Shown in pieces: positions 11,182 through 31,126 of a DNA stretch of 64,000 bases. The notes below the pieces were generated by a model. That model had not been told where the DNA came from. It did not search any database and worked only from the letters and a program-made list of their open reading frames with translations. The position numbers and the translations under genes are program-made. Location of the stretch: positions 1,496 through 65,495 of the forward strand of contig JAZQEH010000013.1 in the NCBI GenBank assembly GCA_045538895.1, read 5' to 3'. The stretch comes from Eubacteriales bacterium. Its GTDB lineage: Bacteria; Bacillota; Clostridia; Oscillospirales; CAG-272. How positions within the stretch are numbered: position 1 is the first letter of the stretch; each line of letters starts with the position of its first letter.

Positions 11182-13185
11182 ATGAATAAAAACTTAAAGG
11201 TGATTATCGGATACGTTCTGGTAATTGCCGTAATTCTGTATGTTGGTGCGAACATGCTCGGTCTTGGACCCGAGGAGGACCCGATATACAGTGACATCAT
11301 CAGTTATTTTGAAAACGGCGAGGTTGAAACCTTTGAGATCTCCGCATCCAACGAGCTTAAAATAACGCTCAAGGAGAAAATCGAGGGTACGGACAAAAAT
11401 AAAGAGGTATACTATCTGCTTCGTGATGCAGGCTACTTTATGGAGAGCATCAAGGAGTATATTGACGGAATGGAATACGATATCCCCGGTGCAAAGACGT
11501 CGTGGTGGGTTGCGTTCGTTCCTTATATAATAATGATTGTCGTTTTTGCATTCCTCTGGTTCTTTATCATGCGCCAGATGAACGGTCAGGGCGGCAAGAT
11601 TGGCAACTTTGGCAGAGCACGTGTTAAACTCGGCTCGGACGAGAAAAAACGTGTTTTGTTCAGCGACGTTGCAGGTGCAGACGAGGAAAAAGAAGAGCTT
11701 ACCGAAATCGTTGAGTTCCTTAAAAATCCCAAGGAATTTGAGAAGCTTGGTGCAAAGATACCCCACGGTGTGCTTTTGATGGGCCCTCCCGGTACCGGTA
11801 AAACCTTGCTTGCAAAGGCAGTTGCGGGTGAAGCAAACGTGCCTTTCTACTCGATTTCCGGTTCCGACTTCGTTGAAATGTACGTCGGCGTAGGTGCATC
11901 CCGTGTGCGTGACCTGTTTGAAACCGCACGCCGTCATCCTGCGGCAATCGTATTCATTGATGAAATTGATGCGGTAGGACGTCAGCGTGGCACAGGTCTT
12001 GGCGGCGGCCATGACGAAAGAGAGCAGACTCTTAACCAGCTCCTCGTTGAGATGGACGGTTTTGGCAACGGTACAGGTATTATCGTGATCGCGGCAACCA
12101 ACCGTGCAGATATCCTTGACCCAGCACTTCTTCGTCCGGGCAGATTTGACCGTCAGATTACGGTTAACTATCCCGACCTTTACGGCAGAGAGGCTATTCT
12201 CCATGTACATGCGAGAAACAAGCCGTTTGAAAGCGACGTTAATTTTGCAACTATTGCAAAAACAACCGTTGGCTTTACAGGTGCAGACCTTGCAAACCTG
12301 CTTAACGAGGCAGCATTGCTTGCGGCTCGCCGTAAGAAGAGCCTTATCGGTATGAACGATATCGAGGATGCCATGATGAAGATTCTCATGGGACCGCAGA
12401 AACGCAGCAAGCGTATTCTTGATAAAGATAAGAAGATCACCGCTTATCACGAGGCGGGCCATGCAATTGCATCAAAAATTGTATGCCCCGAAGAAAGCGT
12501 TCATCAGATTTCTATTATTCCCGCAGGACGTGCGGCGGGCGTTACAGTTACACTCCCCAAGGAGGACTATACACATCTCACTAAAAACGAGATGGAGGCA
12601 CGTATTGTTATGCTGCTCGGCGGACGTTGTGCAGAGGCACTTATTATGGGTGACGTTTCCACAGGTGCGTCAAACGATATCGAACGTGCTACGTCCATTG
12701 CACGCAGCATGGTTACACGCTACGGCATGAGTGATATCCTTGGCCCCGTGGTTTACGGCAACGATCAGCAGAGCGTGTTCCTCGGCAGAGATTTTTCATC
12801 CTCGCAGAGCTACTCGGATAAGACTGCATCCGACATTGATGCTGAGATTCAGCGTATCGTAAAGGGTGCGTACGCAAAGGTTGAAAAAATTCTCAATGAG
12901 AACATGGATAAGCTTCACTTTATCGCCGGATTCCTCTTCAAGAACGAGGTTATGGAAGAGGATCAGTTTGAAGCGGCAATGGAAGCGGAAAATCCTGATA
13001 TGGAGGCCATTGAGGCACTCAGAAGCGAGCGTGCAAAGCGTTCGGAAATGGAGAATGCCGAGGCTAAGAAGCGTCGTGAGGCAGAGGAAGCGGAACGCCG
13101 CAAGAAAGCTGAAGAGGAAGCAGCTATCAAGGTTGATAAGCTTGTCCCAGACAGCGACGATGAACCGCCCGTTCCCAAAGATTAA
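11182..13185 (+). CDS. ftsH: ATP-dependent zinc metalloprotease FtsH
   Basis: AAA Walker [12 protein letters not shown] region, HEAGHA zinc site, Lys/Glu-rich tail. Confidence 0.95.
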
Positions 13186-13195
13186 TATTTAAAAA

Positions 13196-13492
13196 TAGCA
13201 TTGCGTTACAACGCAATGCTATTAAGAGTGCTGACAAACACGTCAGACCGCAAGTAAGAATAAAAGCAAAGCTAATAAATAGAAATAATTTTCCACTTTG
13301 CGTTAAAACAAAATGCGGCAAGGGCATAAAAAGCCCTTGCCGTTACTTGCTTTTTCGGATTTTTGTCTCTACCGTACACATGTACGCCGACGAAACAAAA
13401 ATCCAAAAATCTGCCTGTGTTTCTCAGCCTCTACTCAGCATGATGACTTTGTCATCATGCTGAGTAGCATTGCGTTACAACGCAATGCTATT
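13196..13492 (+). repeat. T element (241 bp, 13224-13464) with flanking 28-bp perfect direct repeats that duplicate the ftsH terminator hairpin
   Basis: TAGCATTGCGTTACAACGCAATGCTATT occurs at 13196-13223 and 13465-13492. The interior matches the reverse complement of 29868-30107. Confidence 0.85.
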
Positions 13493-13592
13493 TTTTTAAT
13501 ATGTGCTGAAAGATGAAAATGTAAGGATTACGTTTCCTGATTTAATTCTTAAATATCATTCTTCCCTACAATGATTTGTGCATAGCCGTAAC

Positions 13593-20497: not shown

Positions 20498-20505
20498 TAA
20501 GTAGC

Positions 20506-20539
20506 AAAGAGCCGCCCGATTTTCGGGCGGCTCTTTTTT
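20506..20539 (+). terminator. Intrinsic terminator after ycaO
   Basis: AGAGCCGCCCG-ATTTT-CGGGCGGCTCT followed by TTTTT. Confidence 0.8.
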
Positions 20540-20545
20540 CTTATT

Positions 20546-20660
20546 CAGTCGAAAACAAGCTTTTCGACTGGTCAGGGGTGGCAAGTCTCGCGACTCCGCT
20601 CTACCGCTCCGCCACCCTTTAAGGTGTTTTAAAGTCGGCGCATGTCCGCCTTTAAAACAT
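20546..20660 (+). repeat. H module: three consecutive hairpins, structural homologue of 24607-24716
   Basis: CAGTCGAAAA-CAAGC-TTTTCGACTG; GGGTGGC-27 nt-GCCACCC; TGTTTTAAAG.CGG...CCG.CTTTAAAACA. Confidence 0.65.
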
Positions 20661-20806
20661 TTCCCTATCCGCAAAGAGACGCCCCGAAATCGGGCGGCTC
20701 TTTGCTCAAATCTTATAAGGGTAAGGATTTCTCCTCATTTTTAATATATCATGTATTAATTTCAAAATCAATGCCAATACCGATACAGTTTTATCAAAAG
20801 CGATAC

Positions 20807-29842: not shown

Positions 29843-30132
29843 AATCCCACTCGAAACGAGTGGGATTCAGCCTGATGACAAAGCCATCTGGCTGAGTGGA
29901 GGCTGAGAAACGCAGGCAGATTTTTGGATTTTTGTTTCGTCGGCGTACATGTGTACGGTAGAGACAAAAATCCGAAAAAGCAAGTAACGGCAAGGGCTTT
30001 TTAAGCCCTTTCCCCATTTTGTTTTTAATACGAAGTGGAAAATTATTTGTTCTTATTCCCTTTACTTTTATTTTTACTTGCGGTCTGACGTGTTTGTCAG
30101 CGCTCTGAATCCCACTCGAAACGAGTGGGATT
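29843..30132 (-). repeat. T element (240 bp, 29868-30107) with flanking 25-bp perfect direct repeats that duplicate the ABC-permease terminator hairpin
   Basis: AATCCCACTCGAAACGAGTGGGATT occurs at 29843-29867 and 30108-30132. The interior is an inverted copy of 13224-13464 with a 91-nt identical run. Confidence 0.85.
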
Positions 30133-30136
30133 AATT

Positions 30137-31126
30137 TTATCTTTCTTCACGGAAATATGAAAGTCCAAGACTCTGAGGAGGCTGGCTTTCACGCTTTTCA
30201 CGGATACTTGTAATAACAAGCACTATAATGGTTACAACGTAAGGAAGCATCTTGAGAAGCTCCTGAGCCGCAAAGCTCACGTTTACAACCGACCAGAGGA
30301 TGTAAAGTCCGCCGAAAAGGAACGCACCGAGTATGCCCACGTTAGGACGCCATACCGCAAAAATTACAAGTGCGATTGCAAGCCAACCGCGGTCACCAAA
30401 GCCGTCGTTTGCCCAGATACCCATGTAGTCAACTACGTAGTAAAGACCGCCAAGACCTGCAATCATACTGCCGATACAGGTTGCAACATACTTATACTTG
30501 TTTACGTTGATACCCGCCGCATCTGCGGTAGCAGGGTTTTCACCGACTGCACGGAGATGAAGTCCCACACGTGTGCGGTTAAGCACAAATGCCGCTACAA
30601 GCGCAATTACAACTGCAAGATAAACAAGAAATCCGTGCGAAAGGAAAATATCGCCGAACCAACCGAGTTTTTCTGCAAAGGGAAGATTTGTTTTAAACAA
30701 AATCTTTGTCTGCGGGAACGAAAGCGAGGTTTCGCCCGTACCCGAAAGCTTTGCAAGTGTACCGCCGAAAAAGTTACCGATACCGATACCGAATGTGGTG
30801 AGTGCAAGACCGGTTACATTCTGATTTGCACGGAGAGTAACGGTGAGGAAACAATAAATAAAGCCCATTACAAGCGAGCCGAGAAGCGCACTTACAAAAG
30901 GAATCAAAATCGCAAGCACGGGATTCATCGTATCAACAGAATGTTCATAAAGGAACGCACCCGCCGCACCTGAAATACCGCCAACGTACATGATACCGGG
31001 GATACCGAGGTTAAGATGTCCCGACTTTTCGGTGATGATCTCACCTGTCGAGCCGTAAAGCAACGGGATACCCTGCATTATTGCACGGGGCAAAAACAGA
31101 AGAATCGAAGATAAAAACGCCATCAT
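30137..31126 (-). CDS. ABC transporter permease (BMP/nucleoside-type importer)
   Basis: Polytopic membrane protein in an operon with a second permease, a double-NBD ATPase and a BMP lipoprotein. Confidence 0.85.
   Translation of the reverse strand: MMAFLSSILLFLPRAIMQGIPLLYGSTGEIITEKSGHLNLGIPGIMYVGGISGAAGAFLYEHSVDTMNPVLAILIPFVSALLGSLVMGFIYCFLTVTLRANQNVTGLALTTFGIGIGNFFGGTLAKLSGTGETSLSFPQTKILFKTNLPFAEKLGWFGDIFLSHGFLVYLAVVIALVAAFVLNRTRVGLHLRAVGENPATADAAGINVNKYKYVATCIGSMIAGLGGLYYVVDYMGIWANDGFGDRGWLAIALVIFAVWRPNVGILGAFLFGGLYILWSVVNVSFAAQELLKMLPYVVTIIVLVITSIREKRESQPPQSLGLSYFREER

Follow-up and report, generated by a model that had tools for sequence, protein, structure and literature searches.

Two copies of a structured element of about 240 bp were found in the window (the whole stretch of 64,000 nucleotides that was analyzed), each lying between two direct copies of a different terminator hairpin. 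We consider it probable that they represent non-coding, non-autonomous, MITE-like elements that select their target by structure, inserting at the feet of a palindrome, most likely in its cruciform form, and duplicating the hairpin in the process. The element family is real and well supported, and it appears to be undescribed, as it found no match in Rfam or in the plasmid and phage collections.

The first copy is located downstream of ftsH, where the sequence TAGCATTGCGTTACAACGCAATGCTATT occurs in direct orientation at 13196-13223 and again at 13465-13492, the two being identical at 28 of 28 positions. This 28-mer has no third site in the window, and the identity ends exactly at both boundaries. 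The proximal copy, which starts 11 nt past the ftsH stop codon, is followed by AAGAG, whereas the distal copy is followed by TTTTTAA; hence, the earlier note, which had described a perfect 28-bp duplication of the whole ftsH terminator hairpin with a T-run after the distal copy only, was correct to the base. With the element bounded by CAG...CTG (13224-13462), the duplication can be read as a 30-nt palindrome, AATAGC...GCTATT, with one mismatch. The features of this locus are as follows.

11182-13185, forward strand: ftsH, whose terminator is the target; a 667-aa ORF with FtsH_ext, AAA, AAA_lid_3 and Peptidase_M41 domains, and with homologues named FtsH.
13196-13223, forward strand: proximal target duplication, a hairpin without T-run whose predicted energy as DNA is -13.3 kcal/mol; with 13194 as the start, it reads as the 30-nt palindrome.
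13224-13462, forward strand: element copy 1, 239 nt, AAG...CTG (the family consensus start is CAG), 91% identical to copy 2.
13465-13492, forward strand: distal target duplication, with the T-run 13493-13497 next to it; an intact intrinsic terminator with a 14-pair stem, flagged as terminator-like.

The 241 bp between the two TAGCATTGCGTTACAACGCAATGCTATT copies align with positions 30106-29867 of the opposite strand at 91.25% identity over 240 nt. This second copy of the element is likewise found between two exact copies of a hairpin, AATCCCACTCGAAACGAGTGGGATT (29843-29867 and 30108-30132), which is 25 nt long, differs from that of ftsH, and serves as terminator for the ABC permease gene at 30137-31126 on the minus strand.

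30137-31126, reverse strand: ABC transporter permease gene (PF02653 BPD_transp_2, E 1.7e-32), whose terminator is the target of copy 2.
30108-30132, reverse strand: proximal target duplication of copy 2, a hairpin without T-run on the minus strand.
29868-30107, reverse strand: element copy 2, 240 nt, CAG...CTG, inverted relative to copy 1.
29843-29867, reverse strand: distal target duplication of copy 2, followed by TTTTATTG on the minus strand and flagged as terminator-like on that strand.

Thus, it was confirmed that the 241-bp insert is an inverted copy of 29868-30107 (91% identity) bracketed by a different duplicated hairpin, and that the duplicated units at both loci end two T into the T-run, as had been noted before. 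The two copies have the same orientation relative to their respective upstream genes. Since the 18-nt end motif was seen twice in the window against 0.03 occurrences expected, chance can be excluded for these copies.

The consensus ends of the element are 5'-CAG...CTG-3', with the motif CAG-N6-GACAAA at both ends. These ends are also supported by a junction in a third lineage (locus L045), which reads ...GACTCT/CAGCCTG; the last base of the copy in the metagenome-assembled genome (MAG) is mutated there. The copies range from 236 to 242 nt and differ by indels. On the coordinates of copy 1, the parts of the element are the following.

13224-13247, forward strand: left terminal inverted repeat, (C/A)AGAGTGCTGACAAACACGTCAGA, containing CAG-N6-GACAAA; pairs with 13410-13433 (helix 1).
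13248-13316: A-rich stretch, the most variable part of the element (36 of 72 columns vary).
13317-13341, no strand assigned: internal GC hairpin formed by GGCAAGGGC, a loop and GCCCTTGCC; flagged at 13315-13343 as resembling a terminator on either strand.
13357-13404, no strand assigned: long hairpin, whose 10-bp stem carries a 28-nt apex, CTCTACCGTACACATGTACGCCGACGAA (13367-13394).
13410-13433, forward strand: inner right inverted repeat, complementary to the 24-nt left end.
13436-13462, forward strand: right-terminal perfect palindrome, CAGCATGATGAC-TTT-GTCATCATGCTG, 27 nt, each arm being a copy of the CAG-N6-GAC end motif.

Conservation is unevenly distributed over these parts. Alignment columns 112-195, which begin at the 3' arm of the GC hairpin and reach as far as the beginning of the inner right repeat, are nearly invariant; outside the probe with which the copies were fished, only 5 of 62 core columns vary, a difference from the left third with Fisher p = 7e-8. 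The apex CTCTACCGTACACATGTACGCCGACGAA is identical in 12 of 12 aligned copies, including the copy from a Ruminococcus MAG (L008:88-321), which is far more divergent than the others and retains the end motifs. In this divergent copy, 8 of the 12 pairs of helix 5, below the apex, have both partners replaced, with pairing maintained in every case; helix 1 (17 pairs, 97% of cells paired) has three compensatory pairs, and the stem of the internal GC hairpin is kept, partly through compensatory changes. It is to be noted that all of the double-sided changes (17 of 17) come from L008, i.e., from one divergent lineage rather than from many independent events. Between the two window copies, the right-terminal palindrome shows one compensatory change, from A-T to C-G; the predicted DNA energy of its consensus form, -12.6 kcal/mol, falls within the range of the target hairpins. 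The loop of the internal GC hairpin is inverted in the window copies relative to the MAG copies, and the terminator call for this hairpin is more convincing on the antisense strand.

Predicted folding of the element is extremely strong, with z = -17 for the sense strand and -15.5 for the antisense strand, and such modeled folding on both strands fits DNA palindromes as well as it fits RNA structure. Comparison of the listed ORFs revealed no conserved ORF shared between the copies. The possibility of a mobile small RNA gene with its own promoter was dropped, since there is no promoter-like site within the element. An Rfam search of the whole window at the gathering threshold gave no match, and the element region, searched with E values of up to 10, returned only sub-threshold hairpin noise, the best being 27 bits against a threshold of 55 bits.

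Further copies were found with a 22-mer taken from the core of the element, which, in a scan of genomes with each species represented once, retrieved 19 loci, 18 of them in a single MAG, JAZNOM01 ('Eubacteriales bacterium'), and one in the rumen Ruminococcus MAG mentioned above; the element was also found once in the Logan assembly ERR15157016. JAZNOM01 is about 80% identical to the window at the nucleotide level in the dnaB-ftsH region, whereas identity between the element copies of the two organisms is 88-92% (nine full MAG copies). The JAZNOM01 loci lie mostly at contig ends, as is expected of a repeat. The earlier note had asked whether other copies are also flanked by duplicated hairpins, and the answer is that they are: a GC-rich stem-loop adjoins every recovered junction (13 of 13 left and 17 of 17 right), and the left-flank hairpin has a matching right-flank hairpin in 12 of 13 cases overall, 10 of 11 in JAZNOM01. 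Four of the JAZNOM01 pairs are on the same contig; that of L015 is exact, that of L005 has one mismatch, that of L010 has two mismatches in the loop, and that of L011 has five mismatches, and is an old insertion. The other six pairings use flanks from different contigs (L001L = L004R, L006L = L013R, L013L = L009R, L016L = L011R, L017L = L002R and L018L = L019R, where L and R denote left and right flanks). These cross-contig pairs, together with the identical right flank of the L001 and L010 contigs, fit chimeric joins through the 240-bp repeat in a short-read assembly made with k=141. Among the loci examined, the left flank of L012 was the sole one without a partner.

Many of the targets lie between convergent genes. 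A rule by which the element would invariably turn its CAGAG end toward the terminated gene was rejected, most MAG targets being of this convergent kind, and a fixed orientation was rejected as well, since the element in L010 is reversed relative to its co-directional operon.

Evidence of mobility was provided by an empty site. The strict comparison concerns the MAG insertion downstream of a gene for a 288-aa AraC-family protein (L015/L031), and not the two window copies. In a sister strain represented by a Logan assembly (L044), this gene is 99.2% identical, the flank is 98.5% identical over 1718 nt, and the site contains a single hairpin, AGAGTCTGC-GAAG-GCAGACTCT, and no element. The empty site reads ...GAATAAAAAGAGTCTGC-GAAG-GCAGACTCTTTTATTC...CTATCATTCGTA, and the filled site of the MAG reads ...GAATAAAA[AGAGTCTGCTTTCGCAGACTCT]-element-[AGAGTCTGCTTTCGCAGACTCT]TTTTATTC...CTATCATTCGTA, with the same distal flank as in L044. 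Since there is a single hairpin in L044 and two in the filled MAG, the duplication is linked to the insertion, and the element is mobile. Two more distant orthologous loci (L029 and L030; 85-89% amino acid identity) carry one homologous hairpin each. In the third lineage, L045, where the gene is 90.7% identical at the nucleotide level, an element occupies the same position with the same orientation; this is either a shared old insertion that was later lost precisely in the L044 lineage, or a hotspot that was hit twice.

For the window copies themselves, relatives offer only loose empty sites, in which the hairpin sequences differ: the ftsH loci of relatives with about 90% amino acid identity have one hairpin directly past the stop codon and no insert, and the same holds for the ftsH locus of JAZNOM01 itself. 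The nearest FtsH proteins (about 90% amino acid identity) are from MAGs labelled Ruminococcaceae, Clostridia or Eubacteriales, and an exact-protein look-up of the window FtsH and permease returned no record; as no second genome of the window's species is on record, there is no strict empty site for these two copies. Tandem hairpins without an insert were seen at none of the sister-strain and relatives' loci examined. Overall, the matched flanks and the strict empty site support the view put forward in the earlier note that independent insertions each duplicated a complete stem-loop. A sister-strain site without insert, of the kind it looked to, was indeed found, and neither of the two outcomes that it named as refuting was observed.

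The family thus has the features by which MITEs are operationally defined, i.e., small size and non-coding sequence, terminal inverted repeats (TIRs), a target site duplication (TSD) with presence/absence polymorphism, and dispersed copies, with the exception of a transposase-encoding parent IS: no IS with the same ends turned up in searches of the window, of the fetched loci, or of collections of plasmid, phage and viral sequences and JGI metagenomes.

The geometry of the duplications was analyzed in the 12 paired cases, using CAG and CTG as the element boundaries. The lengths were 30, 25, 28, 26, 24, 20, 25, 24, 21-22, 30, 22 and 24 nt, with a mean of 24.9. The duplication is roughly symmetrical: in most cases both ends are equidistant from the dyad of the hairpin, and two or three are off symmetry by 1 nt, the boundaries within A/T runs being partly ambiguous. 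The duplicated unit comprises the GC stem-loop and, from the adjoining A-run and T-run, 0-7 A:T pairs; the palindrome extends 1-4 bp past the duplication at several sites and stops exactly at the duplication ends at others. The target hairpins share no common sequence and all consist of an A-tract, a stem-loop and a T-tract, with predicted DNA energies of -8.9 to -13.3 kcal/mol; the choice of target is based on structure. By a hand tally, the duplication length is negatively related to the length of the GC core (r about -0.6), which is compatible with a ruler component of about 25 bp.

A duplication of this kind implies two strand transfers on opposite strands, one duplicated-unit length apart, followed by gap filling. 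We propose that a transposase acting in trans, and absent from the searched loci, would move the element, and that its target would be the palindrome of an intrinsic terminator (A-tract, GC-rich stem-loop, T-tract), recognized as a structure and not as a sequence. Under an assumed DDE-type chemistry, which is taken by analogy, the element ends (5'-CAG...CTG-3') would each be linked to a different strand, one at either outer foot of the palindrome, and gap filling would then copy the whole hairpin, leaving the element between direct copies of 20-30 bp. The target would most likely be an extruded cruciform, in which the attacked phosphates are neighbors across the four-way junction; both arms extrude equally, which would give a symmetrical duplication, and the branch point could slide within the A/T extension, giving a variable duplication length. 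AT-rich flanks are known to favor such extrusion (C-type cruciform extrusion). The cruciform is the most likely form of the target because the duplication is centered roughly on the dyad and its length tracks hairpin size; it is from this geometry only that we infer extrusion.

The same mobile element could instead be handled by an integrase working on B-form DNA, which would bind the palindrome as a symmetric multimer or ruler and make two cuts some 25 bp from each other with no cruciform, in resemblance to the TnsB-like enzymes of the IS1202 group. We regard this as unlikely, although it accounts for several observations, namely, that the duplications cluster around 25 bp, that shorter GC cores bring more A:T pairs into the duplication (by the hand tally), and that TSDs of 16-28 bp are made by the IS1202 group (PMC10132070). 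The separation of the strand transfers, however, varies by 10 bp between sites and is centered on the dyads, which distance-measuring on B-form DNA explains poorly and attack at the feet of a cruciform explains well; the 20-30-bp range is wide for a ruler, and the duplication ends track the dyad of each hairpin. The ends of the element, CAG...CTG, also differ from the 5'-TGT...ACA-3' ends that accompany the TnsB-like transposase of the IS1202 family, and the long-TSD members of that family have no recognized target preference (PMC10132070). Thus, the TSD length of our element is not unprecedented, since the IS1202 group makes 16-28 bp, and the two share unusually long target duplications, but they differ in the ends and in the clear palindrome target seen here; membership in IS1202 was rejected on the end sequences.

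The single-strand routes are very unlikely. In these, an enzyme of the HUH/Y1 type (IS200/IS605- or RAYT-like), or template switching in replication, would insert the element at a folded hairpin, and the hairpin would be copied during replication. The many conserved hairpins of the element, some of them with compensatory changes, suggest that a single-stranded form matters, and the loops of hairpins are inverted in some copies relative to others, as happens when a palindrome undergoes template switching. Nonetheless, elements of the IS200/IS605 type insert beside a short specific sequence and produce no target duplication, and the present element does not share these features, having long duplications and no common target sequence. 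We know of no single-strand or template-switch mechanism that would leave an exact direct copy of the target hairpin on either side of the insert.

It is highly improbable that a Cas1-type, casposase-like integrase moves the element, in which case the hairpin duplication would be the reaction by which CRISPR repeats are duplicated. The likeness is that two staggered strand transfers occur around an often palindromic unit, which gap repair then duplicates, and that the duplicated unit here is about the size of a CRISPR repeat. In vitro, Cas1-Cas2 integration, including off-target integration, favors sites by cruciform-capable inverted repeats, with palindromes next to AT-rich DNA, and the targets of casposase include a palindrome (PMC5137440). 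However, Cas1 systems use a defined site, leader-repeat or tRNA-adjacent, and a fixed unit length, the characterized casposase producing a fixed 15-bp TSD at a specific site, whereas our element entered many different terminators, at least 12 unrelated sites, with sequence-free duplications of 20-30 bp. The analogy that the earlier note drew speculatively with Cas1 found no support in the 64-kb window, which is without cas1, and no likeness to known casposon ends emerged as far as matches in the plasmid and phage collections could show it.

Least probable of all is a non-mobile element, i.e., a module of structured RNA or of the 3' UTR that travelled along with terminators through recombination: the very strong folding predicted for it (z = -17 and -15.5) and the near-invariant core would suit this reading, but the flanking hairpin differs from copy to copy while being identical on the two sides of each, the sister-strain empty site contradicts it, there is neither a promoter-like site nor an Rfam match, and folding is equal on both strands, as expected of DNA palindromes.

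Returning to structure-targeted insertion at palindrome feet, the closest known system is that of IS1272/TnSha1, which belong to the IS1182 family and are found in staphylococci; ISfinder is said to list TSDs of up to tens of bp for this family. IS1272 and TnSha1 insert into 22-30-bp stem-loops that share no primary-sequence consensus, many of which are confirmed terminators lying immediately downstream of a gene, and a cruciform target has been proposed (PMC4923244, PMC5678879). Our element likewise hits hairpins and terminators without sequence consensus. With IS1272, however, the stem-loop is lost in whole or in part and no duplication arises (PMC4923244, PMC5678879), whereas here the stem-loop is duplicated whole. 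Such an outcome has been drawn, although not observed, as pathway b in Fig. 13 of PMC5678879, in which whole stem-loop duplication results if the ends join the 5' feet of the cruciform. Other members of IS1182 that target palindromes are reported by Siguier et al., as far as that work is cited in PMC4923244 and PMC5678879. The present element is furthermore 240 bp and non-coding, and an IS1182-type transposase was not found in the window or the fetched loci.

Among small bacterial repeats, Correia elements create a 2-bp (TA) duplication. Correia, RUP, bcr1 and SPRITE, which comprise MITEs and terminator-like repeats, are small, non-coding, multi-copy and intergenic, with TIRs and strong predicted structure, and bcr1 makes a 5-bp duplication (PMC3184786). 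Our element is likewise small and has TIRs and strong predicted folding as these do, but duplication of a whole terminator hairpin is reported for none of them. We have not filed the element under any named IS family.

A search for the enzyme was made at several levels. The genes of the window are all housekeeping, among them nusA, rimP, gdpP, rplI, dnaB, tilS, hpt, ftsH, the genes for aconitase, IDH and citrate synthase, and further an ABC transporter, aminoacyl-tRNA synthetases, pknB, rlmN, fmt, def and priA; there was no transposase, integrase or cas1 among the 48 ORFs of the 64-kb window, and a tRNA scan of the window found none. Self-BLAST of the MAG loci, about 110 kb, revealed no second repeat that might be a candidate IS. 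By BLASTN, the element had no match in the plasmid and phage collections, and its 45-nt left end gave only chance matches at E up to 10. In the JGI metagenomes, the core 22-mer had 0 matches, and a degenerate TIR pattern had one chance match, in GC-rich coding DNA. In viral contigs, the invariant apex had 0 matches, and the TIR pattern had 12 matches, all within a conserved phage ORF without flanking hairpins and likewise taken as chance.

We offer tentatively the thought that the enzyme may be an integrase, possibly of an undescribed family, that recognizes extruded cruciforms, i.e., four-way junctions, at intrinsic terminators and attacks both feet, with the internal terminator-like hairpin and the 28-nt apex as functional parts of the element. 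If this is true, such an integrase would be a natural system of structure-guided, sequence-independent integration, and its product, a palindrome duplicated around an insert, would be formally the same as the repeat duplication of CRISPR.

Insertion into a terminator may also affect transcription. The gene-proximal hairpin is left without a U-tract, and judging from the sequence some read-through into the element is likely; at ftsH, read-through through the element is plausible, and the '270-nt structured 3' UTR' envisaged in the earlier note is possible, although the predicted internal hairpin at 13315-13343 may stop ftsH transcripts ahead of the distal hairpin. Transcripts that enter the element would meet either this internal terminator-like hairpin or the distal intact terminator. 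As termination would thus be restored within or just past the element, we infer that it may be tolerated in terminators, even between convergent genes.

These findings have several implications. IS1272/TnSha1, the one well-studied case of hairpin targeting, destroys the hairpin, whereas the sequence data indicate that the family described here keeps it twice. A duplication length that is set by structure constitutes sequence-level evidence for strand transfer at palindrome feet, and it suggests that the integration enzyme recognizes the shape of a hairpin rather than the DNA sequence; the family should therefore offer a clean assay for cruciforms as in vivo targets of transposition. It also provides a concrete case outside CRISPR of an insert with a duplicated palindromic unit, which bears on the origin of the repeat-spacer architecture. 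In practical terms, the copies break short-read assemblies wherever they occur, and for annotation each insertion turns one terminator into a hairpin without U-tract, 240 structured nucleotides and a second terminator. For the element, terminator hairpins would represent safe and abundant landing sites, and for the host, insertions can alter the 3' ends of essential genes such as ftsH.

At the hairpin downstream of the AraC-family gene, the ~240-bp element was present in the metagenome-assembled genome (MAG) JAZNOM01 (locus L031) and in a third lineage ~90% identical to this MAG (L045; Logan assembly ERR15157016), whereas the same hairpin was empty in a sister strain that is 99% identical (L044; Logan SRR27608058). 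Two explanations are open: precise loss of the element, possibly via the direct repeats of 22 nt, or a hotspot that received two insertions in the same orientation.

Comparison of copies revealed that the hairpin loops were inverted while the stems remained unchanged, both in the hairpins of the element and in the target hairpin:

Internal hairpin loop (window 13326-13332): ATAAAAA or TTAAAAA in the window; TTTTTAA in the MAG copies.
Terminal hairpin loop of the element: TTT; AAA in MAG locus L005 (~1686-1688).
Target hairpin loop: GAAG at the empty site (L044); TTTC in both duplicated copies at the filled site (L031).

Judged from these sequences, the inversions look like palindrome loop-flipping by template switching.

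A second family of structured repeats, ~130 nt long, was common to the MAG and the window organism. It is made up of an AAG-loop hairpin, a GC stem and, with complementary A/T runs on either side, the motif G(C/T)CGGCGCATGTCCG(C/T)CTTT. The window member lies within the third direct-orientation hairpin pair of the window, located where the YcaO and SLH genes converge:

L013, 2085-2200: MAG member of the family.
L006, 1-140, reverse strand: MAG member.
Window 20504-20536: first hairpin of the pair, GCAAAGAGCCGCCCGATTTTCGGGCGGCTCTTT.
Window 20537-20670: window member, the insert between the hairpins.
Window 20671-20703: second hairpin, GCAAAGAGACGCCCCGAAATCGGGCGGCTCTTT.

The two hairpins are 82% identical, with the loop inverted between them, and the 134-nt insert that they bracket, which differs from the ~240-bp element, opens with TTTCTTATT and then a CAG...CTG hairpin (CAGTCGAAAACAAGCTTTTCGACTG). 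Another small element may have inserted here longer ago and duplicated the hairpin; at the MAG copies in L013 and L006, no obvious flanking hairpin duplication was found.

In several JAZNOM01 copies of the ~240-bp element, the left and right flanks came from different loci (flanks of L006, L013 and L009), and one flank was common to two contigs (L001:1-138 and L010:1-138). The contigs appear to be chimeric across the repeat, and this assembly should not be relied on for the order of genes on either side of such copies.

Element copies from the window organism were 88-92% identical to those from the MAG (L001-L019 and L026), as opposed to only ~80% nucleotide identity across the dnaB-tilS-hpt-ftsH region, which suggests that the element is under constraint or that its horizontal spread was more recent. 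Its 28-nt apex, CTCTACCGTACACATGTACGCCGACGAA (window 13367-13394 and 29936-29963), was identical in every copy, including the divergent one from a rumen Ruminococcus MAG (L008:~225-252), in which the underlying stem has been almost wholly swapped for compensatory pairs while the apex is intact. The apex could be a binding site for a transposase or a host factor.
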